24,000 bases of DNA, taken from Infirmifilum uzonense (GTDB lineage: Archaea > Thermoproteota > Thermoprotei > Thermofilales > Thermofilaceae). This document shows positions 3,308 through 19,012 of the stretch, one piece after another (position 1 is the stretch's first letter; every line of letters begins with the position of its first letter). The notes under the pieces were generated by a model, which saw only the letters and a list, made by a program, of their open reading frames with translations, did not search any database and was not told the origin of the DNA. The DNA is taken from assembly GCF_000993805.1 (NCBI RefSeq), contig NZ_CP009961.1, positions 528,714 through 552,713 of the forward strand, in the 5' to 3' direction. Made by a program: the position numbers and the translations under genes.

Positions 3308-4021
3308 ATGCCGAGAAGCAACTTCTATCCGCTGCCCCTCAGGAACCTCTACAAGCTAATGACATCCCTGAGGGATCCCAATCCTGATGAGATAATGTCC
3401 ATCCTAAAGGTGAGGAGCAGGAGGACAGCTGAACAGTATGCCAAAACCATGAGCTGGATTTTGAGGAAAGTTGAAGATGCCAAGTCCATGGATGAGTTCT
3501 TCGAGAAAGTTGCTGAGGTCCTCCTTAAGGAGTACATGCTTGAGAAGGCCTTCGCCTTCCTAATGGAGAGAGGGATCCCGCTCACCCCCTCAAGCCTTTC
3601 CCTTGCAGTTAAGAAGAACGGCCTCAAGATCTGCGATACTGAGGCCAAAGCAATAATATCATGGCTGAAAGAAGGTGGATTCCTGAAGGAGAGGAAGGTG
3701 CCTATCCTGGCCCTTTCCCTGGAGGAGAGAATCCTCGAGGACATAAGGGAGAGGGGCTCCCTCACATACTCCAGCCTGAGGAAAGTGTATGGTGATGCCG
3801 CAAGAGAAGCCTTATTCTCCCTGTGGAGAAAGGGGTTGATAGAGATCCCTTCCTTCGAGAAGTACAGGCAGGTGCTTGAGAATGTAAACGACATCGATAG
3901 GATACCAGGGGGCATTTCGGGGAGGATATTCTCCACATGGCAGGACAGGATAAGCGGAGATGTATACAGCGAGCTAGTAATACCCCTCAGGGAGAGAATA
4001 TCAGCAAGGTGGAATGAATGA
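3308..4021 (+). CDS. Hypothetical protein with a wHTH-like C-terminal region; first gene of a two-gene operon
   Basis: The 237-aa ORF contains a winged-helix-like segment, ILEDIRERGSLTYSSLRKVYGDAAREALFSLWRKGLIEI. An AT-rich TATA-like TTTAGTAAATAA lies about 20-25 nt upstream of the ATG. The stop overlaps the next start in ATGA (4018-4021). Confidence 0.6.
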   Translation: MPRSNFYPLPLRNLYKLMTSLRDPNPDEIMSILKVRSRRTAEQYAKTMSWILRKVEDAKSMDEFFEKVAEVLLKEYMLEKAFAFLMERGIPLTPSSLSLAVKKNGLKICDTEAKAIISWLKEGGFLKERKVPILALSLEERILEDIRERGSLTYSSLRKVYGDAAREALFSLWRKGLIEIPSFEKYRQVLENVNDIDRIPGGISGRIFSTWQDRISGDVYSELVIPLRERISARWNE

Positions 4022-5808
4022 GCCAGCCCGACTATTTTGAGGAGATAAGGGCGCTTTATGAAAAATTCAGGAAGCTCGAGAGCTCCACAATAAGGTTGAT
4101 ACTGGACAGGTGGTCAGATAGAAGGCCGCTGGAGCTCACAATTGACCTGATGCAGGATGTTTTGACGAACTTTTCACGCTTGAAGGAGACCTCTGATGCT
4201 GTGATAAGGTATCTGAAGGATAGGGATTGGAGGGGAGCTATAATCAGTATTGTCGGGGAGTATGGGTCAGGAAAGACTCAATTGGGTCAAATTCTCCTGA
4301 GGAGGATTGAGGAAGAGGGGATATTCTCCAGGATCATCACAATAAGCCCCTTAAGGGACATGAAGGGGGTTATGCTTGAAGCTCTTGAAGCTTCTCCCGC
4401 TGAAGGGCCCGCTGTTCTCATAATAGATGAGGTGGATCAGCTTCTAGGAGAGCTAAACAAGGGAAGCAGGAGGATGATTGAGGATCTAGCTGATACAATC
4501 AGGGGGATAACTGAGGGAGGCCATGGATATCCTCCAATGGGATCCGTAGTCATGCTGCTGTCCAAGAGAGCCAGAGAAGCCCTTAGGAGCGATAAAGCCC
4601 TTGGAAGCAGGCTAATGGACAGGTCTAAGGAGTTAAGCCTATCTATGAGCGAGGATGAGAGGGAGAAAGCAAGTAAGGAGGCATTAAATAAGATAATTGC
4701 CCTCTGGATGGCATATTATGAGCACGACGATGAGATGAGGTATGCAATAAGGAGCTCCCTGGACAGAGTATATCCTTTCATGGAGAGAGTTGCCTCAGAG
4801 CTCTCGAGGACGAGAGAGATAGGGGGGATAGTGAAGGGTCTAACCGAGCTATCATCAAGGATAATTGAAAACTTAGGAAGATCTGAACAGATGGGAAGAA
4901 TAGAAGAGGGGAACTTTGCAGAGAGCCTGCTGAGGAGGTTCCTGTCGAGCGAGATGAGGAGCATACAGCTCAACGTGAGGATTGGGGATATAACAAGGGA
5001 TTACATAGCGATATTCTCTGATGAGCCCTTAAGCGCTCCAGGGGCCAGAACTGATGCTCATTTCGATGTGTGGACCTACGATGCCAGCAAAGGGGTGAAG
5101 GGTGGCGTCCTAACAACAAAAGTTGGGGTTGAGATAAAGTACGGGAAGTACTGGATAGAGAGAAAAGATCAGCTTTCAAAGATAATGAATGCCTATCCAC
5201 TGCTTCTGATATCAATAGCTGAGATGGACCCAGACGAGATAACTGACGTAAAGGTGGAGATGGGGAGAAGGTTCGACATTGTGGATATAAACCCGGACAT
5301 GTTCAGGATGATCCAGGTTCTGAGGGATGATGCTGTAATGAGGTTCCTAAGGGATTGGACAACGCTTGAGAGGGATTTGAAGGAGGCCCTGGAGGAGTTG
5401 ATGAGAGGATCTGTTAAGGTGAAGGAGGAGGCTAGCGAGCAAGATATCCTAATGGAGGCTTCTGCCAGCCTGTTAAGCTCAGTTTTTAGGGAGTTGAAGA
5501 AAGCGAAGACTTCCAAGAGGTATGATACGCTCTCAAAGCTCATAGCTAGGAGCATAGAGGGCGTGTTCAGCAAGTACGGAGAGAGGCCTCCCTCTATTCA
5601 GGATACTGTTATCTATAGAATAGTGAGAATTCTTGAGAGGGAGGGGATTGGGAGGATGAGCCAGAGCGGAAAGAGCTTTAGCTTAGACAAGGACTGCAGG
5701 CTCAAGATCGAAGAGATAGAATCCGATTTGGAGAGGAGAAGGAGGATAGAGAGGATTATATTTGATGTCCTATCTAGACCGGCTGGAGTTCAGGCACTGG
5801 AGCTTTAA
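4018..5808 (+). CDS. P-loop NTPase (AAA/STAND-like) with a PD-(D/E)xK-nuclease-like C-terminal region
   Basis: Walker A is VGEYGSGKTQ (about 4255-4281). Walker B is VLIIDEVDQL (about 4414-4437). Further on, TDAHFDVW...KVGVEIKYGK (about 5041-5150) has D...E-x-K spacing like restriction-endonuclease-fold proteins. The gene is translationally coupled to the upstream gene. Confidence 0.75.
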   Translation: MSQPDYFEEIRALYEKFRKLESSTIRLILDRWSDRRPLELTIDLMQDVLTNFSRLKETSDAVIRYLKDRDWRGAIISIVGEYGSGKTQLGQILLRRIEEEGIFSRIITISPLRDMKGVMLEALEASPAEGPAVLIIDEVDQLLGELNKGSRRMIEDLADTIRGITEGGHGYPPMGSVVMLLSKRAREALRSDKALGSRLMDRSKELSLSMSEDEREKASKEALNKIIALWMAYYEHDDEMRYAIRSSLDRVYPFMERVASELSRTREIGGIVKGLTELSSRIIENLGRSEQMGRIEEGNFAESLLRRFLSSEMRSIQLNVRIGDITRDYIAIFSDEPLSAPGARTDAHFDVWTYDASKGVKGGVLTTKVGVEIKYGKYWIERKDQLSKIMNAYPLLLISIAEMDPDEITDVKVEMGRRFDIVDINPDMFRMIQVLRDDAVMRFLRDWTTLERDLKEALEELMRGSVKVKEEASEQDILMEASASLLSSVFRELKKAKTSKRYDTLSKLIARSIEGVFSKYGERPPSIQDTVIYRIVRILEREGIGRMSQSGKSFSLDKDCRLKIEEIESDLERRRRIERIIFDVLSRPAGVQALEL

Positions 5809-5851: not shown

Positions 5852-5876
5852 CTTTCAATCCTCTTTAAATTGAGGC
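5852..5876 (-). repeat. Orphan CRISPR repeat copy, inverted relative to the adjacent mini-array
   Basis: CTTTCAATCCTCTTTAAATTGAGGC is the reverse complement (24/25) of the repeat at 5929-5953. The two are 52 nt apart. Confidence 0.8.
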
Positions 5877-5928: not shown

Positions 5929-6017
5929 GCCTCAATGTAAAGAGGATTGAAAGTAATAGCTCTGATGGCAAAGTACGGCGGAGACAAGGTCGGCCTCAAT
6001 GTAAAGAGGATTGAAGG
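5929..6017 (+). CRISPR. Mini CRISPR array of a second repeat family: two repeats and one 39-nt spacer
   Basis: GCCTCAATGTAAAGAGGATTGAAAG is at 5929-5953. GCCTCAATGTAAAGAGGATTGAAGG, with one mismatch in the last bases, is at 5993-6017. The spacer is 5954-5992. The + orientation places ATTGAAAG at the repeat 3' end, and the distal copy is the degenerate one. Confidence 0.75.
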
Positions 6018-6022
6018 CAAAG

Positions 6023-6789
6023 TTAAGCTTTCTTCCAGAGTATCCAGATCAAAGCTCCAGTTATCATAAGTTTGAGTGAGATCTCAGCCACATTGAGGCT
6101 GAAGGGAATATTTAGCAGAACAGCCAATACACTGGCTACCTTCTCCCACTTGGTCATTCTCACCTTCAGCTCAAAGACCTTTGGCAGCATCACCACCATT
6201 TTAGAGCTCTCGTGTATGTAGTACTGATCTAGGTCGCTCTCGCTTGCCAGCACAGCCATAGCTGCAATCTCAGCTTTGAAGCCAGCAGTTAAGTTGAGGA
6301 CCACGTTCTTGTTCCTCCTGACCACATCCCTAGCGCTCCTCACGAGGTTTTCACTGCGCTGCTGAAGTCCCCTGTTCCGAATCCAGCCAGAGTGTGGATG
6401 CTCACATTAGCTCCGAGGGAGTGTAGGTAATCTTGAAGGACATCTGCCATGATCTTTCCAGCTTCTGTGTCGGATCTGAAGATGTGGGCCTCACTTACGA
6501 CCTCTTCCAGCTTAGAAGTCCCCTTGACCTGCTCAACATAGCTGAGGAGGCTGTTCAGCTCAGCGCTAGCAGCCTTGGGATTCCTCTCAAGGTATTTCAA
6601 CATCTCACCCTTAAGGGCGATCTTCTCATCACCACTCAAGCTCTTCAAGAATCCCTCACTTACATTGGGATCCTCGAGTTTCCTCTTAAGATCCGGATAC
6701 TTACACAACAAAGAGCTCTGGGTTAGGTTTCTGGCGAGGTTCCTCAGGAGAGATGCCCCACATGTGATGACATGAACCTCTTTTTGCAT
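6023..6789 (-). pseudogene. CARF-domain protein (APE2256-like Cas family) split by a frameshift, with a hydrophobic C-terminal tail
   Basis: ORF A (6340..6789) has VHVITCGASLLRN, SAELNSL and FRSDTEAG. ORF B (6023..6343) has LNLTAGFKAE, the second CARF signature. The two ORFs overlap in GTGA. Adding one G to the G4 run (C4 on the + strand, 6369-6372) gives one continuous frame of about 255 aa (...GFGTGGLQQRSENLVRSARDVV...). The last 40 or so aa are hydrophobic (VASVLAVLLNIPFSL, LMITGALIWILW). Confidence 0.7.
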
Positions 6790-7400: not shown

Positions 7401-8433
7401 TTGAGGATGGAGGTAAAAGTAAGGAGGTTCAATCCGATATACGAGGCTTTTCTGAATCTCAAGAGGGTTAATGTGATGAGAGGTCCTCCTGAGACCGGCA
7501 AGTCCAACCTTCTTGAGGCTCTATCAATCTTCTCCTTCCTGGGTCAGATCAAAAACTACATGAATTCAGGCCTTGTGTCCCCTGTGAGCATAGGAGGTAG
7601 ACTCTGGTCCCTTCAAGGTCTATCTGAGATCCTGAGGATGATGACAAGAGCTAGAAAACTGGATGATATCTTCTTTGCTTTCTCAAGGGAGGAGCCCATT
7701 GAGGTGGAGCTGGATGGAAAAAGGATGAAATGCTCCTATGACAGCAAGAAGAGGGCTCTCAGCGTATGCCTTCAGGAAGAGGAGATCCTGGAAATAGATG
7801 AGTATATGAACATCAGGGCAAGGCGTGAGGGTCTTGAGGGGCTTCCAGAAAACGTGAAGTTCTACAGGTACTCCGAGGGAAAGGAGGTTCAAAAGGAGGT
7901 TTAGTTTGGGGACTTCCTTCTCCCACCCCATGGTCCAAATTTAATGTATCTCTTAAGGACAAGGGATGACCTGAGGAGGATTGCAACCAGAATTCTTGAT
8001 GATTTTAACATAAAATTTATCATTTCTGAGGGGAAAATCAAGTTCTTAAAGCCGAGAAATAGAGAGCACCTCAGAATAGAGCACCATATGCTTTCAGATA
8101 CTGTTAAGAGAACTCTTTTTTTTTGCCTGGGGGCTGTGGAGTCAAACAGGGATTCGCTGGTGTTAATGGAGGAACCCGAGGCCCACTCTTTCCCCTTTTT
8201 ACACAAAGTTCCTCGCTGAGAGAATTACATTAAGCGATAACTCCTACATTGTCACCACTCACAATCCCTACCTCCTTGAGACCCTCATGGAGAAAATTCC
8301 GGAAGGAGATATCTCTGTTTATCTCTCCAGGGCTTCAGGATGGGAGACAAAATACGAAAGAGTGGATGTAAGGAGGATCAGGGAGATAGTGGCTGAAGGA
8401 GTGGATGTCTTTTTCGAGCTTGGAGGTAGTTGA
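7401..8433 (+). pseudogene. ABC/SMC-like AAA_21-type ATPase (abortive-infection/OLD-like class), disrupted
   Basis: Walker A is GPPETGKSNLLEAL. The signature-like motif and Walker B are LSDTVKRTLFFCLGAVESNRDSLVLMEEPEAHSFP. The H-loop is YIVTTHNPYLLE. These motifs lie on three pieces. 7401..7904 and 7944..8219 share one frame, separated only by an in-frame TAG (7902-7904). The last piece (about 8199..8433) is in another frame, and removing one T from the T5 run (8196-8200) restores ...SFPFYTKFLAERI.... Confidence 0.75.
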
Positions 8434-8810: not shown

Positions 8811-10580
8811 CTACGTAGAAATCATCTGATTTTCAAGCATAAAAAACTCGGGTATATATATGTATATCCTTTTCATGATTTTATTTATTTCACTTGCAAA
8901 CGGCATTGGCTCTCCAGCAATTTCATGCATAGCAGATCGTACTTTCCCGATTTTCTCAATAAGGGAGTTCATATGTGCCTGAATGTCTTCTGCATCTTGT
9001 AATAGCTTTTTAAGTTTTTCAAGAACACCTCCTTCCTCATATTCAGCTAGAGATTCAATTAATTTACCAAGATATGATATATGAGGCTGAGAAATCTCTG
9101 TCAAGACAGGAATTTCTCTTTCTATCACATTATTTAGGTTATTGAATAGAATATAACAGCGTTCTAAGAAGTATTTAAATTTTTCATCTAGTAATCTGTC
9201 GTCAACTCTAGTAGGAGGTGTCAGCAGGACTCCATGAGTTGCGAAGGAACTATTTCTAAGATAATTTATATTTATTTCAATTTTCCTCCCTTTAATGTAT
9301 TCAAGCTCGGTTATATTATAAAATTTACCTCTCTCTTCAGGTTTAATTTCCTCCTCCTTTACTTTTAATTTTTTATTACAAAAATTCTTTAGCTCATTAA
9401 GCTTTTTTAGATCATAAATTTTGAATAAAAGCTCATGGTAGTCCACTTTTTCACTTGGAGGAAGGATTGATAGGCCTAGGATCGAACAGTTTATAATGTC
9501 ATTTACTTGAGTTATCATATTAACAAAATTATAAAAGAACGAGAAAATGTCCAAGATATTTACTCTTATTAAATAGCAAAGCAGACCTACTGCAAAGTAG
9601 AGATATGATATTGCAATAATATTTGCATACATTATATTTGTTATATTATAATTTCTAGTAAAATGAATTGTCAGTTTCCCCTCAGGAGGGAGCATGCCAG
9701 TTTCTCCACTGAGTTTGTCATACCCCTTCAAAAGATCTTCTAACTTCTCAAACGAGACCTCTATCCCAGTTATCATACCGGCGTAGTGCTCATAAATATC
9801 ACAAATTAGGTCAAGCATCTTCTTTAATTTGAAGATTTTCTCATTAGGATCTATGTAATAAGCGAAATTCAACCGTGGGATCAAGAACTTCCTTATTAAG
9901 CTGTTTACTGTGTCCAATTGCCCATTTCTATATCCACAATAGGCATAAACTATTAATTGATTCATAACTAATGAGTTTATTATTCTATAAAAATGATCAA
10001 TGAATTTTCCTGTATCTGCATCAGCATTAAAGAAACGCAGTGCAATCTCCTGCGCAAGATTAACCAGCGATCTCACAACAGCGCCGTTGTCCGGAGGTCT
10101 CGGCACTAAATGCCTTATTTGATGTTCCGTATCTATACAGAAATATGAAATATTTGATAATAAGTGTTCCTTTGAAAGGTTTTCCTCCAGAATCCTCAGC
10201 TCATCCTCATTTTCTACTGTAATGGAAAGCTTATCGAGCAGGAATATACGGAAAGCAGATTCTAAGAGGAGGTTCTTCTTTGGAGATCTCTCTAGGAAGG
10301 ATTTAAACTCATAATCTACTAGGCCCAGGAAACTGGCAACATCCTCACTTGAGGGAGAAAGAAGTAGAACTCCTAGGGATCCTACCTCTCTTAAATTCTC
10401 CGTTGACATCTTCTCATTTTTTAGCTCCCCCTTCCCTTTATTGTTAAAGCTTAGTCTATACAATCCCCCCCGATCCATTAGAAAGAGCTTTCCATCTAGT
10501 CCCAGATCATTAAACTCATATTCACGCAGGCTTTTTCCTCTTGAAAAAAGGGGTGAGACCAGAAATAAGTCCGGGATCAA
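8811..10580 (-). CDS. Uncharacterised large protein with a central hydrophobic (TM-like) block; last gene of the type III operon
   Basis: The 589-aa ORF starts 2 nt after the stop of the upstream gene. The listed start is TTG, and the next in-frame ATG is at 10478. The hydrophobic block is IMYANIIAISYLYFAVGLLCYLIRVNILDIFSFFYNFV...CSILGLSIL. The C-terminal third is K/E-rich and helical. The middle and 3' parts are markedly AT-rich (about 25-37% GC in hand-counted lines) against about 45% in neighbouring cas genes. I recognise no family motif. Confidence 0.7.
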   Translation of the reverse strand: MIPDLFLVSPLFSRGKSLREYEFNDLGLDGKLFLMDRGGLYRLSFNNKGKGELKNEKMSTENLREVGSLGVLLLSPSSEDVASFLGLVDYEFKSFLERSPKKNLLLESAFRIFLLDKLSITVENEDELRILEENLSKEHLLSNISYFCIDTEHQIRHLVPRPPDNGAVVRSLVNLAQEIALRFFNADADTGKFIDHFYRIINSLVMNQLIVYAYCGYRNGQLDTVNSLIRKFLIPRLNFAYYIDPNEKIFKLKKMLDLICDIYEHYAGMITGIEVSFEKLEDLLKGYDKLSGETGMLPPEGKLTIHFTRNYNITNIMYANIIAISYLYFAVGLLCYLIRVNILDIFSFFYNFVNMITQVNDIINCSILGLSILPPSEKVDYHELLFKIYDLKKLNELKNFCNKKLKVKEEEIKPEERGKFYNITELEYIKGRKIEININYLRNSSFATHGVLLTPPTRVDDRLLDEKFKYFLERCYILFNNLNNVIEREIPVLTEISQPHISYLGKLIESLAEYEEGGVLEKLKKLLQDAEDIQAHMNSLIEKIGKVRSAMHEIAGEPMPFASEINKIMKRIYIYIPEFFMLENQMIST

Positions 10581-10582
10581 CT

Positions 10583-10969
10583 CTATCCCCTTATGAGATC
10601 AATCAAGTGATGCATCTCTTCCTTTTTCCTCAGCTGGAAGTAAAGACCGCATATCGATCTTAGATCCCTCATTTCTGTCAATATGTCAAGAATTCTAGAT
10701 GAGATCCTTCTTGCATCCCTCTCTGATAATGAGAATGGAAGTCTCTTACTGGAGAACTTCAGCGCAATTTCACTTATTATTCCTTCGATGAACACATCCC
10801 TGCTCTCGGCCGGATTGTACCCTCTCCTCAGGATGTATTCGTACCTTCTGACAAGCCTGAATCCCAGATCATACAAATCCCGCCAGCTTTTTATCTGCTC
10901 AAAAGCTCTCTCCATTTTTATAAAATTGATGAGATCCTCGCACCTAACCACCGCCGAACACCTCCTCAA
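10583..10969 (-). CDS. Uncharacterised small helical protein in the type III operon
   Basis: The ORF is 128 aa, or 111 aa from the ATG at 10915, which avoids the 26-nt overlap with the upstream cas7. It sits between the last RAMP gene and the 589-aa gene. No recognisable motif. Confidence 0.6.
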   Translation of the reverse strand: MRRCSAVVRCEDLINFIKMERAFEQIKSWRDLYDLGFRLVRRYEYILRRGYNPAESRDVFIEGIISEIALKFSSKRLPFSLSERDARRISSRILDILTEMRDLRSICGLYFQLRKKEEMHHLIDLIRG

Positions 10970-11744
10970 ATCTTCCTTTTAGCTCCTGTAGGACATTACT
11001 AGCTTGCCTCATGATCTCATTCGTGATGTCCCTCTCATTTCCGAGGGCATCCACAGATAACACTCCTATACTGAGGATTCTTACCTTTCCTAACCCTCTT
11101 GGTTTTCCGAATCCAAGAAGAAATACTTTAGAGCCATTAGGATTATACCCCATCGCTAGGATTAGTTTTGCTGTTTCTATTTCTAGCGGGTTCAGAACAA
11201 TGATATCCGCCTTCAAAGATGTCCCCTGAGGAATACATTCAAGGTAATACTGCTCTTTCTCTTCTCGAAACTCAATGTCATTTCTGTAAAGCTTTATTTT
11301 TCCTGATTCCCGTGCCTTAGGCTGCCAGCTTGGACCAATCCCTACTATTTGCGGTTCAACAGAGCCTTCTGGGAATGAGTCCGAGAATAGAGCTTTGGAC
11401 ATATAACCAGGGAAGCCAAAGAGGTTTGAAGTAGAGGATATATCTCCAGTAAGCGCCAGATAATAGTGAGAAATCGCTCCTTTCAGAGTGGATCCAGGAA
11501 TAATAAGTTTTCCTTCTGATCTAGCATTTAGCAACAGAGGAAGATCCTTGTGAAGCTGGATCTCCCCACTTCCAACATGAACTGGGGATTCTGTCTTCAG
11601 AGATACGTGTATTTTGTGAGCTCTACTAAGAGATGAGTGAGGAATGTAGTTTCTCGTCGATCTCCTCCTTAAACCATCCACCTTAATGAACTTGTAAGTT
11701 TTGGAGCTCATTTGCCCAGCCCCCTTATCAAGGGCTCCAAGCAT
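10944..11744 (-). CDS. cas7: Type III RAMP, Cas7 group (Csm5/Cmr6-like position)
   Basis: Motifs are VHVGSGE...LIIPGSTLKGAISHY, FGFPG and a glycine-rich C-terminal loop, LLGFGKPRGLGKV. The likely true start is the ATG at 11711, which overlaps the upstream stop as ATGA. Confidence 0.8.
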   Translation of the reverse strand: MLGALDKGAGQMSSKTYKFIKVDGLRRRSTRNYIPHSSLSRAHKIHVSLKTESPVHVGSGEIQLHKDLPLLLNARSEGKLIIPGSTLKGAISHYYLALTGDISSTSNLFGFPGYMSKALFSDSFPEGSVEPQIVGIGPSWQPKARESGKIKLYRNDIEFREEKEQYYLECIPQGTSLKADIIVLNPLEIETAKLILAMGYNPNGSKVFLLGFGKPRGLGKVRILSIGVLSVDALGNERDITNEIMRQASNVLQELKGRFEEVFGGG

Positions 11745-12529
11745 TTCTCAACATCCGACCACTTCAGCTTAGCCCTTAAAATAGGAGGCTTTGTTTCCAT
11801 ATCTCCGGTCAGTTCGCACTCGGAAATGGAATCTGAGATTGAGATCTTGTTCTCTGATTTCCTCAGGGAGATCCTTACTTTTTTCCCATAATTCGGGAGG
11901 GAGAACGAAAGGGAAAGACTGTCCATCTCGGACGGCCACACTATGTCAGCTGAGATATCTAACAGATTTATGGATACATGTCCATATCCCCTGCTCTTTG
12001 ATCTCCCCAATCTGGCCACTCCGATATCCGCCTGCTTGATCACAGGGGAGAGAAGGGAGAGGAACGACAGGGGGATATTCCTAAACGAAATATTAGATGA
12101 AAAGCTAACTCCGGGTTTCACGTATTCCTGAGTGAAGGGTCCGTGCTCAACCGCCATCGTTGTTGAATTTATCTTTATATGATCCCTCATCCCCACTGCA
12201 TCGTCCCTGTCGGTATAAGCATCACTGAAGATAAGCCTGGAGCCATAGGCTTCGACTCTAGTCGTCCCGAAGAGATCCTCTACCAGTTTAATGTAATCTT
12301 TTATATTAAGCGCTGATAGAGTTCTCTCAATGCCGGATCTGAAGAAGCCCTTCAAGGTCGATCCTGGTATAACCGGCCTTCCAATGGAATCTCTGAGGAG
12401 TGGTATATCCGGAGCAAGTGGATCCACTGGGCTCTTGCCAGCTCCTATTGTGAGAGGAGTTTTCGTTTTTATCTCACATTTTACACTTCCTGAGATAACA
12501 ATAGCCTCAAATCCGTGAACTTCCTGCAT
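11708..12529 (-). CDS. cas7: Type III RAMP backbone subunit, Cas7 (Csm3/Cmr4-like)
   Basis: Motifs are PLTIGAGKSPVDP...DIPLLRDSIGRPVIPGSTLKGFFRS, LFGT, SRLIFSDAY and RLGRSKSRGYGHV. Confidence 0.85.
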   Translation of the reverse strand: MQEVHGFEAIVISGSVKCEIKTKTPLTIGAGKSPVDPLAPDIPLLRDSIGRPVIPGSTLKGFFRSGIERTLSALNIKDYIKLVEDLFGTTRVEAYGSRLIFSDAYTDRDDAVGMRDHIKINSTTMAVEHGPFTQEYVKPGVSFSSNISFRNIPLSFLSLLSPVIKQADIGVARLGRSKSRGYGHVSINLLDISADIVWPSEMDSLSLSFSLPNYGKKVRISLRKSENKISISDSISECELTGDMETKPPILRAKLKWSDVEKCLEPLIRGLGK

Positions 12530-12534
12530 TCATA

Positions 12535-13350
12535 TCACCTCCTGGGAACTATATCCCCAAGATTTACCTCTCTAATGTTTCCATTAAGCAGATCGCTCAC
12601 ATCTGCTACTCTGATTTTCATCAGCTTTATCCTAGCTCTTCCATATCCCCTGCTTTTCCATCCTCCAATGAACTCCTCCAGACCTTTATTCAGCATTGTA
12701 AGCAGCAACATGAATGCATTATTGGCATCCGAGAATAGGGGATCGCCAAGCTCATCGTATATTATGGTAAATCTGTATTTTGTTGGATCTCCCGCACGCT
12801 CCTTTATTGCCTCCACTTTTGTAAGCATCTTTTTCTCAGCTGCATCTCTTTTCCTGTCCAGCGAAACATGAGTCCTCTTTAGAGTACCAACTAAGCTAAC
12901 TGGCTCAGCATCAGTGAATTTTATCAGCGATGAAAATGAGATGTTCCTTCCAGAATACCCGAACACCTTGTCTAGTACGCATAAATCCTCTAGCTTACTT
13001 GCATCCATCCTTTTCTCGGAGATGCTATCGATGCATGGTTTTAACTCCACCTTAATCCCATCGACCTCCACAGAAGAGCCTCCAGCTATCCTGTAAGCAA
13101 GGAGAAGACGGGAAAGATAGGACCTGAAGAAGCCCTTCAAGGTCGATCCTGGTATAACCGGCCTTCCAATGGAGTCCCTCAGAACTGGAAGGTCTATTGG
13201 AGACTCTGGATCTCTACCAGCACCCACTCTCAGCGGTTCAAGAAGCTCGATCTCACAATCTGCCCATATCCTTCTTTTTATTGTCAACAGACCTCTAGCT
13301 CCGCTCATTTTATCACCCCAATAGGTCACTGAGACCCTTTCTGTAGGCAT
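12535..13350 (-). CDS. cas7: Type III RAMP backbone subunit, Cas7 (Csm3/Cmr4-like), paralog of the previous gene
   Basis: Motifs are PLRVGAGRDPESPIDLPVLRDSIGRPVIPGSTLKGFFRS, VFGYSG, LIKFTDA and IGGWKSRGYGRA. The likely start is the ATG at 13308, 4 nt after the cas11 stop. Confidence 0.85.
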   Translation of the reverse strand: MPTERVSVTYWGDKMSGARGLLTIKRRIWADCEIELLEPLRVGAGRDPESPIDLPVLRDSIGRPVIPGSTLKGFFRSYLSRLLLAYRIAGGSSVEVDGIKVELKPCIDSISEKRMDASKLEDLCVLDKVFGYSGRNISFSSLIKFTDAEPVSLVGTLKRTHVSLDRKRDAAEKKMLTKVEAIKERAGDPTKYRFTIIYDELGDPLFSDANNAFMLLLTMLNKGLEEFIGGWKSRGYGRARIKLMKIRVADVSDLLNGNIREVNLGDIVPRR

Positions 13351-13711
13351 TAAATAGGTATATGCAGGATTTCAGAATGTACTGTGCCAATTTCAGTCTC
13401 TCTTTGCTGCTTTCGGCGCTATTCTTTATTTCCGTCAGGAGATTTTTAACGAAAATATACAGATCATCCCCTTGAGAGGCATTTCTGGCCAAATAAACTA
13501 TTCTCAGCCCAAACAGATCCCAGTTATCCTTCTCTGCGCAGTCTATTGCCACCTCAAGCATATTTCTGAGATTTGTCATAGTGATCTCCGACTCCTCTTC
13601 CTCCTCTTCTGAGGGTATATGCACCCTCCTGAAGAGACTCTTGGCTATTTCAACTGCCCTCTTTTGAAGGGCAGCATCATCCTCGGAGGAACTAATTCCG
13701 CCTGACATCAC
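13313..13711 (-). CDS. cas11: Type III small subunit, Cas11 (Csm2/Cmr5-like)
   Basis: This is a 132-aa all-helical protein in the canonical position between the cas5-like and cas7 genes. It carries a TMTNLRNML motif resembling the small-subunit T-x-x-Q/N-L-R segment. It overlaps the upstream gene in ATGA. Confidence 0.65.
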   Translation of the reverse strand: MMSGGISSSEDDAALQKRAVEIAKSLFRRVHIPSEEEEEESEITMTNLRNMLEVAIDCAEKDNWDLFGLRIVYLARNASQGDDLYIFVKNLLTEIKNSAESSKERLKLAQYILKSCIYLFNAYRKGLSDLLG

Positions 13712-14736
13712 ATCTCACCTCCCAAACTCAAAAGGGAATCAAAATGGAAGGGATTATCAAAAAAGACCATATCAAGACCATGAAATCTCCTCAAAGCACT
13801 TTGAGGGGGAGTTAGCTCTATCTGGATTATCCTCTCTGGATCCAGATTCCCCCTTGGATATACCAGAACGCTTCCTGGTCCCATCATTTTCTTATAAATG
13901 TAGAACTTACCGTTGAACCATGTTTTAAAATCAGATATTCTTATTTTTTCATATATTGGATTTCCTAGTTCGAGGAGCTTTTCACGAGAGGTGAAGGTCA
14001 TTATATCGACCGTGAGAAACTCATGCTCCGACTTCAATCCCTTCAACCTTCCTTTCCTGTACTCATCAAAGCTCATAGACTCATCCACTTTAACTCTTGT
14101 AAGTCCGAATCCCTTTTTTGTAAAAGCACCTATTCTAACCTCGATTTCCTTTTTCAACTCTTCATGAAGGGAGCTATCGAGAAAAGCCAGTGCATGGAAC
14201 TTGGATCCCGGTCTTATGACCTCCTGTGTGAACAGAAGACCGTATTTCTCACCCCTATCTTCTATAGAAGCGTGCGTCCTTCTTTCATAGCTTAGTGCAA
14301 CTTGAGTGATGATCTCCTTGCTTGGAGGCTCGAATCTTCCCTCTTGATTTATGAAAATTGTCCCGACTTTCTTGTTTAAACCCTTCATCTTATCCAGTAA
14401 GCTTGGCCCCTCCTTCATTGCCTTAGCGAAAAGAAGGGCCAAGGAAAGGTAAGTATCATCCTCTTTTCTTGACAATGTTGTGAGCGGAAGAGGAGGAGAT
14501 CCACATAGCTTAAATGGCCTATCGCTGGGGAATGCATGACTAATCCACATGTTAAGATCCTCTATTCTACCATTCACACCCCTCCTTCTGAAGAAATCAG
14601 ATGCTATTGCGCCGGAAAGAGTTGATGACGGGACATACGGAGGACTGGAATAATGAGCTCCCTTACTGTACTTATCTCTTATGATGAGAGGTTCTATCGC
14701 CTCAAGGCACAGCACATCCACCCAATCAAAACTCAC
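13708..14736 (-). CDS. cas5: Type III Cas5-group RAMP (Csx10/Csm4/Cmr3-like)
   Basis: The N-terminal motif is IEPLIIRD...PPYVPSSTLSGAIAS and the C-terminal glycine-rich loop is IGAFTKKGFGLTRV. It is the second gene after cas10, as in type III loci. Confidence 0.75.
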   Translation of the reverse strand: MSFDWVDVLCLEAIEPLIIRDKYSKGAHYSSPPYVPSSTLSGAIASDFFRRRGVNGRIEDLNMWISHAFPSDRPFKLCGSPPLPLTTLSRKEDDTYLSLALLFAKAMKEGPSLLDKMKGLNKKVGTIFINQEGRFEPPSKEIITQVALSYERRTHASIEDRGEKYGLLFTQEVIRPGSKFHALAFLDSSLHEELKKEIEVRIGAFTKKGFGLTRVKVDESMSFDEYRKGRLKGLKSEHEFLTVDIMTFTSREKLLELGNPIYEKIRISDFKTWFNGKFYIYKKMMGPGSVLVYPRGNLDPERIIQIELTPPQSALRRFHGLDMVFFDNPFHFDSLLSLGGEM

Positions 14737-15325
14737 TTATGCTCACCTCCTCAACACTTCCATAACCTAAACAAGTCCATCCACCAATCCCCCACCCCTT
14801 AAGAGCATTTAGAGCTTTTGTCAGAAGATCCACTTCTCTCTCATTGAGTTCTTCGTTAGATTTTATCAGAAAGGTAACCTTGAACCCAGATGATATCACC
14901 TGAGAGAAAAGAAGAGATCCTCTCTCGACAGTTCCTAGCTCTCTATCCAGCTTTGTTCTGGGCCTCAGCTCGATCAGCTTCTCAAGCTTGTCGCTGATAT
15001 CACAATTTATAATTTCAAAACTTAGCTTTCCCTCCTTAGAGACAGGCGAGGCCACCTCTCTACTTTCACCAAAGCACCTGTCAGCAACGTCAGTGCCGAA
15101 GAGATCCTCATAAGCTTGCCTGAGCTCAGGTTTGTTCTGCACTACTATGCACGCTATCTGCCTGAGGGCTCCTTTAAATTGGGCCGGGGATATCGGATAG
15201 GCAACTATTCTGTCTCCTACCTTCTTCTCATAGACCATTACCCTGTAATCCTCCTTTCTAATCTCACCGGATGGTTGAACTGTTCTTATTCCCCTTAATT
15301 TGACCTCAACTCTCAGATTTCTCAT
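14726..15325 (-). CDS. cas7: Small type III RAMP, Cas7 group
   Basis: Motifs are ISPAQFKGALRQ, LFGT and the glycine-rich loop LKGWGIGGWTCLGYG. The start abuts the cas10 stop (15325/15326). Confidence 0.7.
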   Translation of the reverse strand: MRNLRVEVKLRGIRTVQPSGEIRKEDYRVMVYEKKVGDRIVAYPISPAQFKGALRQIACIVVQNKPELRQAYEDLFGTDVADRCFGESREVASPVSKEGKLSFEIINCDISDKLEKLIELRPRTKLDRELGTVERGSLLFSQVISSGFKVTFLIKSNEELNEREVDLLTKALNALKGWGIGGWTCLGYGSVEEVSISEF

Positions 15326-17455
15326 CTACTCACCCTCACAAAATGATCTTCCTATTTCACTGAGCTTTTTTCTCAAGTCAATGCTTCCGAGCTCATTCTC
15401 CACTCTATCCTCCACTATATTCAGTATTGAGCAGAGAGTGTACAGGGATCTCCAGACCTCGGCTGATCCCTTCTTGGTTAGTTCGCTGAATATCCTTCTA
15501 AGACGGCCGTATAATTCCCTGTCCTCTTCCCACCTCGAATCCATACCTCTTGCTATATCACTTAGCCATCTCAGAAGCGCCATCTCATGATATAGCCTTG
15601 ATCTTCCTCCTGAAGGAAGGAGATCCTCAAGGACCTCCTTAAAATCAGAGGATCTAATGGCATTATCTCCAGAGACAGCAATTCTGAGCGATTTAAGAAC
15701 AGGGGATTCATCCTCCGTTCCTATCCATAGAAGAGATCTCCACAGGCCATCATAGTCAACACTCTCTATTTTGAATTTATTTATGGATTCCCATGATGCA
15801 CCTGATTTCGCATATAGAATTGAGGCTTGCACTGTGAATTCATCTCTCGGGGCCTTTTTCGCTATCTCTTTTGTATATCTCAGCATTGCGCGAGAGGCAT
15901 CATATAAATACACACCTGGTACCTTGGTTCTTCCTGCAGTTATGCCCATGCTAATACCCATTTTCTCCTCTTCGGGGATTATTTTGAGCTCCTTTGCGGT
16001 AAAGAAGACCCTTTTAGCTCTCTCAGCTAGACCCCTGATGAATCCAACAACGTGTTCTGCCCTTAAAATGAGCACCATGTCATCGCCAGCCACATAAAAG
16101 GGTGTTATGGGGAGGAAGAAGTTGTACTGCCTTGGCCCAGCGGACTCTCTCATTCTTAAGTTTAGGAATTTTTCCTCAACTTCTAGGGAGTTCCTTGCTC
16201 CGCTCACTAATCCCTCCTCCATGAGAGTACTGAAGAGAATGGATAAGGAGAGAAAGTCCTCAATGGACTTGGAATTGCCCTTTAAGGCGCCAAAGCCATC
16301 CCCATCTGCAGTTATCATAGCAATAAGTGCATTAGAGGACTCGGAGTAATCATAATTCTCCAGTCCCGTCACAAATCTGGCTTCAAAGCCGGCAGAAACG
16401 GCATTTCGCACTTTTTCAAATATCTCATAGGATGATGCCATCTTAACCGCATTCAGGACATCTTTGTTCCATCCTTTTTCTTCTCCATTTAGAATATCTG
16501 TAAAAATAAGCCCATATGAGGCTAAAATTAGGCAGCTCTGGCATATTTTGCCACCATACCTCTCCACGATGTTTTCTTTTAGCCTCCTCACTTTCGTCTC
16601 ATCAACAGCAAAAGAACGCAACAGTTTGTCCACAGAGGATTCATTCAGGCTTGAATCGGCTCTGCAACCCCTACATATATCCTTAGGATCGAGCTCAATC
16701 GGATCACCAGATCCAAGATTGATCGCTCTAGTTGAGGCCAAGGCTAGTCGATACGATGATCCAGCACGGTTCATTATATCTTTGACTTTCAGCATTGGAG
16801 CGCTTGAGCCGTTTCCCTTTAAGACTATAGCATTAGCAATAGGTATTCTCTTGAGGTGTTCAATGATCTCTCCTTCCATTTTCCCTGATAAAGATGGATG
16901 TGAGATAAACACAAGCTCTCCAGCCTCTTTTGTCAGTATGAACTCCTCTCCTAGTTTGTCAGCTACATAAATCGAAGCATATCTGGGCAATACATCGACA
17001 AGAAGGCTTGCACCTCTCATTTCCCTGAAGGCACCATTTCTCTTCACTATTTCCTGTATAGAGCCAACTTCAAGGACCTGTATTGTCACCTTCCAGTCTC
17101 CTCTCTGCATCAAGCCAAGGATCTCCTTAGCTCTCTCATAGTAAGATGAGACATCCACTTTTATTTGTTCAGCAAGTTTGCTGAATCCCTCTCTTTCAGC
17201 AACAGCTTTTAAAGAGGAGAGCCTTACCTTGATCCAATCGCTACTTTCCGGATCGCTGGAGAGAGCCAGTGCCAGCAACGGAGGATGAACCCTCAATCTC
17301 ACTAGATTCCCAAATATCTCCTTCCCCTTTAATTTTCCCCTAAGAATCTCTTTAAGAATTTCATTTATCTTTTCATAAAGGGGATTCAGCCCCCAAACGC
17401 TATAAACAGATAGAAGATCCTCTTCAATTTCGTGCCTGGCCGGGCCTTCGGACAT
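15326..17455 (-). CDS. cas10: Cas10 large subunit, lacking an HD domain and with a cyclase palm motif AGDD
   Basis: The palm 1 entry is VGSIQEIVKRNGAFREMRGASLLVD. The zinc ribbon is CRGC...CQSC. The first palm acidic motif is ITADGDGFG and the second is FYVAGDDMVLIL. The roughly 130 aa before palm 1 contain no H...HD...D pattern. At 709 aa the protein is short for Cas10. Confidence 0.9.
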   Translation of the reverse strand: MSEGPARHEIEEDLLSVYSVWGLNPLYEKINEILKEILRGKLKGKEIFGNLVRLRVHPPLLALALSSDPESSDWIKVRLSSLKAVAEREGFSKLAEQIKVDVSSYYERAKEILGLMQRGDWKVTIQVLEVGSIQEIVKRNGAFREMRGASLLVDVLPRYASIYVADKLGEEFILTKEAGELVFISHPSLSGKMEGEIIEHLKRIPIANAIVLKGNGSSAPMLKVKDIMNRAGSSYRLALASTRAINLGSGDPIELDPKDICRGCRADSSLNESSVDKLLRSFAVDETKVRRLKENIVERYGGKICQSCLILASYGLIFTDILNGEEKGWNKDVLNAVKMASSYEIFEKVRNAVSAGFEARFVTGLENYDYSESSNALIAMITADGDGFGALKGNSKSIEDFLSLSILFSTLMEEGLVSGARNSLEVEEKFLNLRMRESAGPRQYNFFLPITPFYVAGDDMVLILRAEHVVGFIRGLAERAKRVFFTAKELKIIPEEEKMGISMGITAGRTKVPGVYLYDASRAMLRYTKEIAKKAPRDEFTVQASILYAKSGASWESINKFKIESVDYDGLWRSLLWIGTEDESPVLKSLRIAVSGDNAIRSSDFKEVLEDLLPSGGRSRLYHEMALLRWLSDIARGMDSRWEEDRELYGRLRRIFSELTKKGSAEVWRSLYTLCSILNIVEDRVENELGSIDLRKKLSEIGRSFCEGE

Positions 17456-17626
17456 CCTTCATTAAAACTTTGTTTTTTATTATAAACATTTCGGTATTTA
17501 ATTTTTTAACTCTACAAGAGACAAGATAACATTGCAGATATAAAAATTATTTTTGTCTCTAATAAATAGAATTCATTATTTTCACATAAACCTTTTTATT
17601 AAAGTTTGCTTCCATCTCTTGGTATC
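17456..17626. promoter_or_regulatory. Divergent AT-rich promoter region for cas10 (-) and csx1 (+)
   Basis: On the minus strand, TTTATAATAA (17477-17486) is centred about 27 nt upstream of the cas10 ATG (17455). On the plus strand, TTTTTATTAAA (17594-17604) is centred about 28 nt upstream of the ATG at 17627. Both spacings imply leaderless or near-leaderless mRNAs. Confidence 0.5.
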
Positions 17627-19012
17627 ATGGGGGAATCCAAGAGCGAGAGATGTTTAGCTGTAACAACATGGGGAAATCCTCGTGGCTGGTGGTACTCAAG
17701 ATACGTTTATGAGGAATTAGGCCAGAAATTCGACAAATACGGCTTTTCCACGCTGAACTTGTTGATGGAGGTTGAAAGACCTGATATTGTTCTTCTGCTG
17801 GCATTGGACACGCTTTCCAGCCTAAAGGAAAGGGTTTACAACAGCATTAAAAAGGAGGTGGAGGATTACATCAGGTCTCATTTATGCGTTGAGAATGAGA
17901 TTGCGATAGAGATCCTGCCGGGCATTCTTTCCTCTAAAAAAAAGGCTTTCAAAGCCGACTTGGGGGATTATGAGTTGCTTGCACTAAATAAGATCTTTCA
18001 TGAGGGTCTTAAGCTTGGAGGCAATAAGTTACGGATAGCACTGGACATAACACATGGAGTCAACTATATGCCTGTGTTGACTTATTCTGCTGCCCTGGAG
18101 GCAGCTTCCATGCTTGCAGTGACAATATCTAGAGAGGTAGACCTTCGCATTTACCAAGCAGATCCAGTATACCTTGAAGAAGAACTAAGAAGAGAGCTTT
18201 CTAGGCAGAAGGATGATCCTTGTAAGCCCAATGGCAGAGCTGAACCACCTGAGCTACGGTACAACCTCTTGCGCAGGAGGAAAGTTTCGCCTTGGGAGTT
18301 GACAAGATATCTAAGCTACAGCGAAAATAATGCCAGCAAGCTTTTGACAGATCCTCGAGATTGTTCTATAGAGGATTCAGAGATCCTCTACAAAAAAGTC
18401 CTACCGTTGCTGGGGGCATTCAGGATTGGGGCCTTGCCCGAGCTCTGCATTCTGGCTAAGAGCTTAGATCCCAGCTTCCTGAGGAACATCATCAATGAAG
18501 CATTGCAGTGCTGGAATTCAAAGAGAGTCGTCACAGAGGGGAATGTTCTAGAACTAGTGAGCAATACCAGACTTTCTGAGGGATTTAGAGCGTTGTTGCA
18601 TGCCTTAGCACTAGTTACTGGCGTCATGCGTAACCTGGAAAGTGAGTCAGCATGCAGTGAAGCAAGAGAATGCACAACCACGCTTGAGGAGATTAAGAAG
18701 CTGAGGCGCCTCTTAAATGGCTCAAAAGTGATTGAAACCCTTGTTAACAGAGAAATATCTAAGTTAGAACATATAAAACAAAAGATATGCCCTGATGACT
18801 GGACACTCTACTCAGAGTATAAATCAAATGGAGGAGATATCTCACGCTCGGGAAATGGGAAATTTACCAGAGATTTCATAGCTCATGCAGGCTTTCATAA
18901 CGAAGTTCTTCTGCTGAGGAAATCCTCCTCAGAAAAAGATCTTGAGATAAAGATAGATGAGGGACAATTGGACAAAGTCCTAAAAATCCTGAGAAAACAA
19001 GTCCTCATATAG
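17606..19012 (+). CDS. csx1: Csx1-family CARF-HEPN ribonuclease (Cas DxTHG family)
   Basis: The N-terminal CARF strand is CLAVTTWGNP. The DxTHG motif is ALDITHGVNYMP. The C-terminal HEPN motif is TRDFIAHAGFH (R-x4-H with the Csx1-type AHAG). The probable true start is the ATG at 17627. Confidence 0.88.
   Translation: MLPSLGIMGESKSERCLAVTTWGNPRGWWYSRYVYEELGQKFDKYGFSTLNLLMEVERPDIVLLLALDTLSSLKERVYNSIKKEVEDYIRSHLCVENEIAIEILPGILSSKKKAFKADLGDYELLALNKIFHEGLKLGGNKLRIALDITHGVNYMPVLTYSAALEAASMLAVTISREVDLRIYQADPVYLEEELRRELSRQKDDPCKPNGRAEPPELRYNLLRRRKVSPWELTRYLSYSENNASKLLTDPRDCSIEDSEILYKKVLPLLGAFRIGALPELCILAKSLDPSFLRNIINEALQCWNSKRVVTEGNVLELVSNTRLSEGFRALLHALALVTGVMRNLESESACSEARECTTTLEEIKKLRRLLNGSKVIETLVNREISKLEHIKQKICPDDWTLYSEYKSNGGDISRSGNGKFTRDFIAHAGFHNEVLLLRKSSSEKDLEIKIDEGQLDKVLKILRKQVLI

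Follow-up and report, generated by a model that had tools for sequence, protein, structure and literature searches.

A type III-D-like operon and its two terminal genes

The window analysed here is a stretch of 24,000 nucleotides from the genome of Infirmifilum uzonense. Its minus strand carries a CRISPR effector operon (10944..17455) consisting of cas10 (15326-17455), a cas7 gene (14726-15325), csx10/cas5 (13708-14736), the gene of a small 132-residue protein taken as a putative cas11 (13313-13711), two further cas7 genes (12535-13350 and 11708-12529) and a last RAMP gene (10944-11744). Adjoining cas10 and divergent from it, a plus-strand gene (17606..19012) encodes Csx1, with a CARF and a HEPN domain. 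The Cas10 protein matches palm2 (Pfam, 1.2e-6) and the Cas10 models of PADLOC (9.4e-15), and contains an AGDD motif; no HD dipeptide is found within its first ~130 residues. A first inspection of this DNA, hereafter the sequence-only reading, had described a Cas10 that lacks the HD domain and keeps its palm motifs, and the domain and motif inspection bears this out. Csx10/Cas5_IIId was detected with PADLOC at 4.7e-10 and with TIGR02674 at 1.5e-7, the latter under the cut-off of that model. Four clear RAMPs are encoded, with matches ranging from 1.6e-10 to 3.7e-24. Because Cas10, the signature of a Csx10-type Cas5 and several Cas7/RAMP genes occur together, the operon is, from its domain content, type III-D-like. 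No cas6 was detected in a Pfam/NCBIfam scan of the operon ORFs.

As already described from the sequence, the operon runs on past the last RAMP gene into a small minus-strand ORF (10583-10969 at its maximal extent, 128 aa) and then, after 2 nt, into a gene of 589 codons (8811..10580, minus strand). These two genes are named X122 and X589. Because all relatives keep the N-terminus MVRCEDL and an overlap of 8 nt with the RAMP stop, the most likely start of X122 is the GTG at 10951, which would give a basic protein of 122 residues (10583..10951, minus strand; pI 9.5). X589 starts with a TTG located 2 nt after the X122 stop; its product and the hypothetical protein MA03_02800 of I. uzonense are 100% identical. 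Both genes point the same way as the effector genes, and each start overlaps the stop before it or lies right beside it, as is seen with translational coupling. In one group of relatives, clade B, the X122/X589 junction is an overlapping TTGA.

Conservation of the gene order in four clades

The X589 family was assembled through an exhaustive phmmer search and scans of contigs anchored on X122. A word-index search with the X589 sequence or profile, in which up to 8000 word-sharing candidates were scored and distant relatives were probably left out, returned only a 98% twin. The related type III-D operons form four clades (A, which includes the window, to D) from hot-spring Thermofilaceae and Korarchaeia, and X122 directly follows the RAMP gene throughout. 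Of the 21 contigs to which X122 or X589 led, 15 have the order RAMP-X122-X589, as does the window; the six remaining contigs are without X589 or end at X122. In the exhaustive search, relatives of X589 were confined to this same operon position. Their full-length ORFs, of 589-614 aa, are present in the four clades and share 32-47% identity, more than 40 residues being invariant. Identity to the proteins of the window is 58-76% for the cas products, 58-65% for X122 and 32-40% for X589, a genuine coding gene with a much higher rate of evolution. Since the clade pattern of identity is the same for X589 and for the cas genes, X589 co-diverged with the operon. Synteny and coupled starts, conserved across four clades, therefore substantiate the view that the two genes are real, uncharacterised and closely tied to the operon. 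Overall, X589 is very probably an operon-linked accessory, and X122 and X589 are two lineage-restricted CRISPR-associated families of a III-D variant in hot-spring Thermofilaceae and Korarchaeia.

Across clades, the conservation of X122 equals that of Cas10 and Cas11, and its loss was seen in none of the related type III-D operons found. This constant retention at 58-65% identity suggests that X122 is probably an extra core subunit of the III-D variant common to Korarchaeia and Thermofilaceae. The size and operon position of X122 fit a Cas11 small subunit; hhalign of X122 against the operon's own 132-residue putative Cas11 gave a probability of 0.4%. Weak reciprocal HMM matches (E >1) had presented X122 as a Cas11 paralogue or as a relative of the X589 C-terminus. 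Neither relationship was confirmed by hhalign.

Database searches and layout of X589

Searches of Pfam, NCBIfam, PADLOC and PHROGs linked neither X589 nor X122 to a known family of cas or accessory proteins, in agreement with the sequence-only reading, which had recognised no such motif in either protein. CARF and SAVED domains gave no match with Pfam, NCBIfam or PADLOC in a search taken to E 10 across 19 aligned family sequences. No PDB-sequence match was obtained for the two proteins, profile hmmsearch giving just designed helical bundles or noise, and no viral homologues were present in IMG/VR. PHROG matches had E values of 0.014 or weaker and lay on coiled-coil-like segments. Matches to SLATT_4 and to the PADLOC '2TM effector' (E 0.06-0.25) concerned two of the 19 members, at residues 549-588, outside the hydrophobic block described below. 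Together with matches to ZorA and Cas2, they were treated as noise, since they fell at off-target positions or in single members. The profile searches assign X589 to no known family, and its homologues sit only in the III-D operon position.

The AF2 models of X589 have a mean pLDDT of 43.9 with a 5-sequence alignment and of 51.0 with a 19-sequence alignment, the long helices alone being confident. Foldseek with the low-confidence AF2 model found nothing in PDB or BFVD, and no nuclease or RNA-binding fold was detected in X589. The predicted secondary structure comprises a beta-rich N-terminal segment of ~75 residues, then helices throughout. At the N-terminus, MIPDxxLVSxLF is invariant in the family alignment. 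A helical region (residues 80-290) precedes a conserved hydrophobic helical hairpin at residues ~299-370 (to ~372; codons 9465..9684, minus strand), which holds the densest cluster of invariant residues of the family. A variable K/E-rich linker (residues ~373-435) is followed by the invariant motif L441-R442-N443-x5-H449-G450 (codons 9231..9260, minus strand), by three long C-terminal helices (residues 461-575) and by a conserved C-terminal YIYIPEFF.

The central hydrophobic block

From the hydrophobic block, the sequence-only reading had proposed a membrane-associated effector. The block itself is present: Kyte-Doolittle 19-residue windows exceed 1.6 across residues 316-349 of the window's copy, where just one helix is so hydrophobic. 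Membrane association is not supported by hydropathy sums across four clades or by sequence conservation. As a membrane effector or sensor, X589 would insert via its central block and perturb the membrane or signal there upon activation of the complex, like Cam1, Csx23 or CorA. Helix 1 is indeed TM-grade in clade A (Kyte-Doolittle 1.98; Hessa-scale sum of ~+0.5 kcal/mol), near the values of permease TM segments encoded in the same window. In addition, some clade D members were named AzlD or YggT by IMG, both of which are small membrane protein families, and the frequent loss of X589 reported below would suit a toxic membrane effector. However, on these Hessa sums, which are crude hydropathy totals and not a trained topology predictor, helix 1 reaches +3.1 to +7.0 in clades B, C and D, as compared to 4.4-4.5 for the most hydrophobic stretches of the soluble Cas10 and Csx1. 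Helix 2 gives +16 to +19 in all clades, which argues against a TM hairpin, and a single TM helix would put 315 or 250 residues outside the cell without a signal peptide. Moreover, the block is kept in sequence, beyond mere hydrophobicity: it is the most conserved part of X589, with invariant polar residues N320, R339, N351, Q358 and N364. No CARF, SAVED or other ligand sensor was found in X589 by the profile searches, and the weak SLATT_4 and '2TM effector' matches fall on C-terminal soluble helices rather than on the block.

Because TM-grade hydrophobicity is limited to the window's clade and helix 2 is far too polar, the data do not support a membrane effector, which we consider unlikely; from hydropathy and conservation, X589 is probably soluble. 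The conservation of the block in sequence, with invariant polar residues, favours a buried core over an anchor, and the hairpin fits a functional buried core. On the crude hydropathy sums, the block thus resembles a buried soluble core, an outcome that the sequence-only reading had named as refuting its proposal.

Composition, selection and repeated loss of X589

The GC content is 0.31 over positions 9001-10000 of the window as compared to ~0.44 in its cas genes, so that the AT-richness noted earlier is real. The mosaic or recent origin suggested from it is not supported: low GC is found in all four clades (0.33-0.355 for X589, 0.44-0.48 for the cas genes), and this, along with co-divergence, speaks against a recent acquisition. 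A 5'-to-3' gradient of GC along X589 is visible in clades A, B and C. The GC3 value of X589 is 0.34, versus 0.40-0.51 in the cas genes.

X589 is under purifying selection where the data suffice. The pN/pS ratio is 0.20 in clade D (33 synonymous and 27 non-synonymous changes, 60 substitutions) and 0.37-0.87 in clade B. Within clade A, it is 1.3 between the window and contig L001 and 0.48 between the window and L012. The former comparison rests on 2 synonymous and 10 non-synonymous changes in X589, as compared to 49 and 32 in the pooled cas genes (Fisher p = 0.005); the 2 synonymous changes observed fall short of an expectation of 12.3 (P = 4e-4). An explanation by recent exchange of the operon 3' end between the window and L001 was considered but is not relied on, mismatch density being patchy over the entire operon.

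Four independent events inactivated X589 and left the cas genes intact. In L008 and L009, a deletion extends from ~codon 30 past the stop and the start TTG has become TTA; the RAMP/Cas7 proteins common to both contigs are 96-99% identical to those of L018, whose X589 is intact. The gene is truncated at ~codon 75 in L015 and L016, where it runs into the CRISPR array. In L003 and L019, codons ~97 to ~520 are deleted in frame at a microhomology, and L002 has a frameshift near codon 520. The L002 frameshift was observed a single time, whereas each of the other three events appears in two separate metagenome assemblies.

X589 might therefore be a decaying passenger, formerly functional, and the intact I. 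uzonense ORF may add nothing to immunity. Besides the four inactivations, this is suggested by the pN/pS values involving the window (1.3 and 0.48), by the low GC3, by the remnants in L002 and L003, which diverge ~10 times faster than the neighbouring cas genes, and by the 192 pseudogenes annotated in the I. uzonense genome (PMC4673724). On the other hand, long-term purifying selection is needed to explain why full-length X589 persists in four clades at 32-47% identity, more than 40 of its residues being invariant. The ratio of 0.20 on 60 substitutions in clade D and the fact that every clade A and clade B copy seen is intact also argue against decay, which we hold to be rather unlikely.

The R-N-x5-H-G motif

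R442-N443-x5-H449 is invariant in the 19 aligned sequences, from four clades. It agrees with the HEPN motif, reportedly defined by Anantharaman and colleagues in 2013 as Rx4-6H with a polar residue after the arginine. As in the HEPN RNases Csx1 and Csm6, the X589 motif (Rx6H) has a polar residue, in its case asparagine, after the arginine and lies in a helical region; its spacing differs in being at the long end of the Rx4-6H range. No HEPN profile matched X589 in Pfam and weak-hit scans of the 19 family sequences. When X589 was compared to Csx1 with hhalign, the probability was <1% and the motif was aligned to the CARF DxTHG segment instead. For the RN...THG motif, hhalign was significant neither as a CARF DxTHG nor as a HEPN motif. 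In the AF2 model, the RN...HG region has a pLDDT of ~25, its local fold being predicted without confidence. A HEPN-like RNase is a doubtful identity for X589.

Position next to the CRISPR array

X589 has the effector genes on one side and a convergent CRISPR array on the other, of which it faces the trailer end. This position is compatible with a role in crRNA biogenesis or in the array, for instance in loading crRNAs or trimming their 3' ends. In L017 and L018, arrays with as many as 141 repeats begin ~150 nt beyond X589, one repeat follows X589 in L001, and the operon is without cas6. A non-CARF type III accessory family has been reported to act in crRNA maturation (PMC6546367). However, in X589-deleted lineages X122 is still followed directly by a very long array (78 repeats in L008 and 141 in L015), showing that X589 is not needed for array maintenance. 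In addition, the array is apparently transcribed from its far end because the reverse complement of the repeat ends in ATTGAAAG, and X589 has no detected nuclease or RNA-binding fold. A crRNA factor is thus a very improbable reading.

Proposed role of X589

The sequence-only reading had concluded from its HD-less Cas10 that immunity should rely on signalling or accessory effectors, and hence that an undescribed effector was plausible. The Cas10 premise holds; the need for a new effector is weakened, since Csx1 adjoins cas10. Csx1 is the recognisable cOA-activated effector of the window's locus, and the loci of relatives contain Csx1, a B116-like ring nuclease and a SAVED protein. With such cOA-pathway proteins already in the loci, reliance of immunity on X589 is weak as a premise.

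Our preferred reading, to which we give a probability of about 40%, is that X589 may be a dispensable modulator or effector associated with the complex. X589 would be produced along with the effector subunits, as a soluble accessory built mainly of helices. It may dock on the III-D complex, with MIPDxxLVSxLF and YIYIPEFF as candidate docking elements, and would add an activity or modulation that is non-essential and probably comes at a cost. Its buried functional core would be the conserved hydrophobic hairpin, and R-N-x5-H-G is the strongest candidate for a catalytic site, perhaps that of a HEPN-like RNase. Because X589 is without a CARF or SAVED domain, the trigger of such an enzyme would be the complex bound to its target rather than cOA. 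The frequent loss and the pN/pS near 1 in clade A fit a loss of function in I. uzonense equally well. As a long shot, X589 could be the first member of a new class of type III effectors or modulators, having no cOA sensor, docked or built in with X122, triggered by the target-RNA-bound complex via the hairpin and R-N-x5-H-G, costly and shed repeatedly.

Two accessory families are now defined by their boundaries, taxonomic range and evolutionary profile, and X122 looks like a missing core subunit of the III-D variant in Korarchaeia and Thermofilaceae. If X589 is a complex-activated effector, a cOA-independent output would be added to multi-subunit type III systems. If it is not, X589 is still a clean case of a costly or dispensable accessory purged repeatedly from loci that retain their effector operon. 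A culture of I. uzonense exists (DSM 28062), which opens the genes to experiment.

Comparison with known systems

Uncharacterised accessory genes are numerous in type III loci, and CARF domains are missing from about half of the families reported. Cam1, Csx23 and CorA pair TM helices with a ligand sensor, which is a CARF, a tetrameric cA4-binding or a SAM-AMP-binding domain. X589 resembles them as an accessory adjoining a type III cassette, with a hydrophobic segment in the window's copy. In contrast to them, it has no detectable sensor, and the segment is not TM-grade in three of the four clades.

Csx19 of III-D1/III-Dv, a small and formerly uncharacterised protein, proved to be a core subunit needed for assembly (PMC11026444). 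As a small protein encoded inside a III-D operon, it is by description an analogue for X122. Csx19 is described with multiple beta-sheets, whereas X122 was called helical from sequence alone and has no NCBIfam, Pfam or PADLOC match.

Cmr7 of the Sulfolobales type III-B Cmr-beta system and Csx26 of III-G are lineage-restricted extra proteins of effector cassettes (PMC6546367, PMC12669027). They show no sequence similarity to X589 or X122 (PADLOC cas and defence models), and X589 differs further in being far larger (589 aa) and often lost. Like Cmr7 and Csx26, X122 and X589 are lineage-restricted, have no detectable domains and have their genes inside the effector operon or at its end. Cmr7 and Csx26 are thought to join the complex, and we infer that X122 and X589 may do the same.

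Two conserved genes extend the type III operon

On the minus strand, positions 17455 to 8811 form a single tightly packed operon. It starts with cas10 (709 aa), followed by genes for a RAMP (199 aa), a Csx10-type Cas5 (342 aa), a small putative Cas11 (132 aa) and three further RAMPs of 271, 273 and 266 aa. Because family scans matched Cas10 to the Pfam palm2 domain and PADLOC Cas10 models, Cas5 to Cas5_IIId/Csx10 and the RAMPs to Csx7, Csm3 and Cmr4 models, the cassette was classified as type III-D-like. In agreement with the sequence-only reading, Cas10 retains the palm motifs D-G-D-G-F-G and A-G-D-D, and no HD dipeptide is present in the first ~130 residues of its translation. The same reading had proposed that two additional genes continue the 3′ end of the operon, and the coordinates confirm this. 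A small ORF, covering at most 10583-10969 (-), follows the last RAMP gene. Its product, previously estimated at 111-128 aa, can be set at 122 aa (X122), because relatives share the N-terminus MVRCEDL from a GTG start at 10951; this start gives an 8-nt overlap with the RAMP stop. The last gene, 8811-10580 (-), begins with TTG, 2 nt beyond the stop of X122, and encodes a 589-aa protein (X589).

In Infirmifilum (formerly Thermofilum) uzonense, X589 corresponds with 100% identity to AKG38414.1/WP_052883817.1, annotated as "hypothetical protein MA03_02800". This organism is a cultured hyperthermophile from Kamchatka whose genome (1.61 Mb, GC 47.9%) has 192 annotated pseudogenes and, elsewhere, two CRISPR stretches (PMC4673724). 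Apart from coiled-coil-type noise, neither X589 nor X122 matched any Pfam, NCBIfam, PADLOC or PHROGs profile (E up to 10; 19 aligned X589 sequences), any PDB sequence or, with Foldseek, any PDB or BFVD structure, in line with the initial failure to recognise a cas or accessory motif in either protein.

X589 is an old, fast-evolving resident of the operon

A word-index search with X589 returned only a 98% twin, and an exhaustive phmmer search added one 37%-identical relative and two fragments. Searches anchored on X122 recovered many further loci. In all 22 locus records (21 distinct contigs), tblastn found X589 homologues only immediately downstream of X122, which bears out the anticipated linkage to type III loci. 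IMG/VR contained no relatives of either protein. The family was grouped into clades A (the window, L001, L012 and a MAG labelled Ca. Methanodesulfokora), B (607 aa; including Ca. Korarchaeum cryptofilum RSN68249.1), C (L022, L002, L003) and D (L017, L018). Identity to the window's proteins was 58-76% for cas proteins, 58-65% for X122 and 32-40% for X589; X589 evolves much faster. X589 and the cas genes group the clades in the same way, with B nearest C and D nearest an X589-less lineage. Therefore, X122 and X589 are old residents of the operon.

The window's operon is 98.6% identical at the nucleotide level to a contig from assembly GCA_023270135.1. In addition, the Ca. Methanodesulfokora MAG carries X589 at ≥90% identity, and Ca. 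Korarchaeum cryptofilum has a clade B copy. Thermofilaceae and Korarchaeia may thus have exchanged the operon recently, unless the contigs were wrongly binned.

As first described, the central and 3′ parts of X589 are AT-richer than the cas genes (GC 0.31 over 9001-10000 versus ~0.44), and a mosaic or recently acquired gene had been proposed on this ground. However, X589 is AT-rich in all clades (GC 0.33-0.355 versus 0.44-0.48), and its 5′-to-3′ GC gradient is present in clades A, B and C. In the window, GC2 (0.27) and GC3 (0.34) are both low. Since the low GC is found in every clade, the idea that I. uzonense recently acquired a mosaic gene is ruled out.

Two other features were observed. Between the 98.6%-identical operons of the window (8811-17667) and L001, mismatches are very patchy (2-37 per 500 nt), suggesting recombination mosaicism inside the operon, and the least diverged stretch is the AT-rich two-thirds of X589. 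An amino-acid permease gene (1000-2640) has a GC content of 0.61-0.62, as compared to 0.42-0.47 in the cas region and 0.479 in the genome, with a sharp boundary near 2600-3000.

X589 is maintained over long times and repeatedly lost

Clades that share only 32-47% identity have kept full-length X589 ORFs (589-614 aa), in which more than 40 residues are invariant. Values of pN/pS were 0.20 in clade D (L017 versus L018; 33 synonymous, 27 non-synonymous changes), 0.37-0.87 in clade B (L020 or L004 versus L021), 0.56 in clade C (L022 versus L002, the latter frameshifted) and, in clade A, 0.48 for the window versus L012 and 1.3 for the window versus L001. In this last pair, X589 shows 2 synonymous and 10 non-synonymous changes versus 49 and 32 in the pooled cas genes (Fisher p = 0.005).

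X589 has been inactivated independently four times, while the adjoining cas genes and X122 remain intact. In L008 and L009, the gene is deleted from about codon 30 to past the stop and the TTG start has become TTA; RAMP/Cas7 proteins common to these contigs are 96-99% identical to those of L018, whose X589 is intact. In L015 and L016, X589 breaks off at about codon 75 and reads into a CRISPR array. In L003 and L019, an in-frame deletion at the microhomology AACATCTC(G/A)AGAATTTAGTAGATA fuses codon ~97 to codon ~520. Each of these three was seen in two separate assemblies and is therefore not an assembly artefact. The fourth, a frameshift near codon 520 of L002 that splits off an 86-aa tail, is based on one MAG contig.

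A gene in decay is a rival reading here; the losses and the window/L001 comparison speak for it, and the long-kept ORFs speak against it. Taken together, the ORFs and the four inactivations show that X589 is a real but dispensable gene, and possibly a costly one. X122 behaves like a core gene.

The hydrophobic block is conserved in sequence, not in hydrophobicity

Residues ~299-372 had been described as TM-like, and X589 as a plausible membrane-associated effector or sensor. Conservation in X589 is highest in this block (Y318-A-N, Y326-L-x-F, Y336-L-x-R339, Y350-N-F-V-x-M-x-x-Q-V, N364), but its hydrophobicity is not conserved: twelve 19-residue Kyte-Doolittle windows exceed 1.6 in clade A, and zero to two in the other clades. 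On the Hessa scale, taken as crude sums, helix 1 scores about +0.5 kcal/mol in clade A and +3.1 to +7.0 in clades B, C and D, and helix 2 scores +16 to +19 in all clades. The most hydrophobic stretches of the soluble Cas10 and Csx1 give 4.4-4.5 kcal/mol; real TM segments in the window reach -1.0 (permease) and -2.7 (anchor of a 635-aa protein). In the AF2 model, helices 299-337 and 343-370 (pLDDT ~50-73) sit among other long helices. The values for clade A helix 1 would suit a membrane effector; with TM-grade values confined to that clade and helix 2 strongly polar in all clades, the membrane assignment is not supported. The block is most simply read as a buried hairpin of helices whose hydrophobicity rose in the AT-rich clade A, and not as a membrane anchor. 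IMG names "AzlD" and "YggT" on some members, and weak SLATT/2TM matches on residues 549-588, do not alter this reading.

CRISPR arrays and cOA machinery around the operon

Three CRISPR-repeat-like copies lie at 5993-6017 (-), 5929-5953 (-) and, inverted, 5852-5876, with 2-3 mismatches to CTTTCAATCCTCTTTGCATTGAGAC, the repeat of long post-operon arrays in relatives. In L001, the 3′ flank of X589 is directly joined to the repeat equivalent to 5929-5953; ~2.7 kb separate the two in the window, and in L012 as far as the contig reaches. In all arrays found, the operon strand reads CTTTCAATCC... (L017 2196-2400; L018 4380-4560). The reverse complement of the repeat ends in ATTGAAAG, the usual source of the 5′ handle; transcription of the arrays is therefore probably convergent, toward the 3′ end of X589. 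If so, the degenerate repeats adjoining X589 would be the trailer end. This proximity would fit a crRNA-related factor, a reading weakened by X589-less lineages that retain 78-141-repeat arrays directly after X122.

Standard cOA machinery is already present in these loci. Csx1 (CARF-HEPN) is divergent from cas10 in the window and located after X589 in relatives; a STIV B116-like gene of the ring-nuclease family and, at one locus, a SAVED-domain protein lie just upstream of cas10 in relatives (L003 395-2655; L021 2914-3252). These components vary among otherwise collinear loci, and L021 also carries split Cas3 helicase genes. A Cas_APE2256-family CARF gene at 6023-6789 (-) is interrupted by a frameshift near 6340; the two resulting ORFs, of 149 and 106 aa, each contain part of the Pfam domain. 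Pseudogenisation or a sequencing error is the likely explanation. The C-terminal tail of this gene's product shows moderate hydrophobicity (Hessa sum +3.3).

Two further neighbours were observed. A RecF/AAA_15-like ATPase at 7401-8433 (+) is fragmented over at least three ORFs and shows an LMEEPEAH motif and the Walker A sequence GPPETGKS. It could be a decayed version of Cas_RecF, a type III-associated ATPase family described for crenarchaeal thermoneutrophiles. At 3308-5808 (+), a 237-aa ORF overlaps by 4 nt a 596-aa AAA/STAND-like ATPase with weak BrxC/D, KAP and nSTAND matches, and the two may be an uncharacterised defence pair adjoining the CRISPR locus.

Possible function and comparison with known systems

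The extreme N-terminus of X589 (MIPDxxLVSxLF) and L-R-N-x5-H-G at residues 441-450 are invariant, and a C-terminal YIYIPEFF is conserved. The HEPN signature is Rx4-6H, which L-R-N-x5-H-G formally satisfies. No HEPN profile matches this motif, hhalign of X589 with the loci's Csx1 was not significant and paired it with the CARF DxTHG segment, and AF2 confidence around it is ~25. X589 lacks a sensor domain and is therefore unlikely to be a cOA receptor. With modest confidence, we propose that X589 would be a soluble accessory co-translated with the effector complex, that it would dock on this complex and that it would supply a dispensable modulating or effector activity. In the most specific version, X589 could, quite tentatively, be an HEPN-like RNase licensed by the complex.

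A survey of type III accessory genes does not name Thermofilum or Korarchaeum in its text (PMC6546367), and our literature search found no paper joining Korarchaeum with type III and Cas10. The boundaries of the X589 and X122 families are clear, the way they evolve is informative and the host can be cultivated. Their closest analogues are Cmr7, Csx26 and Csx19, lineage-restricted extra proteins of type III cassettes (PMC6546367, PMC12669027, PMC11026444), to which they show no sequence similarity. X589 and X122 represent two new gene families linked to CRISPR, but as uncharacterised genes for type III accessories or extra subunits they are of a familiar kind and do not make a new type of system.
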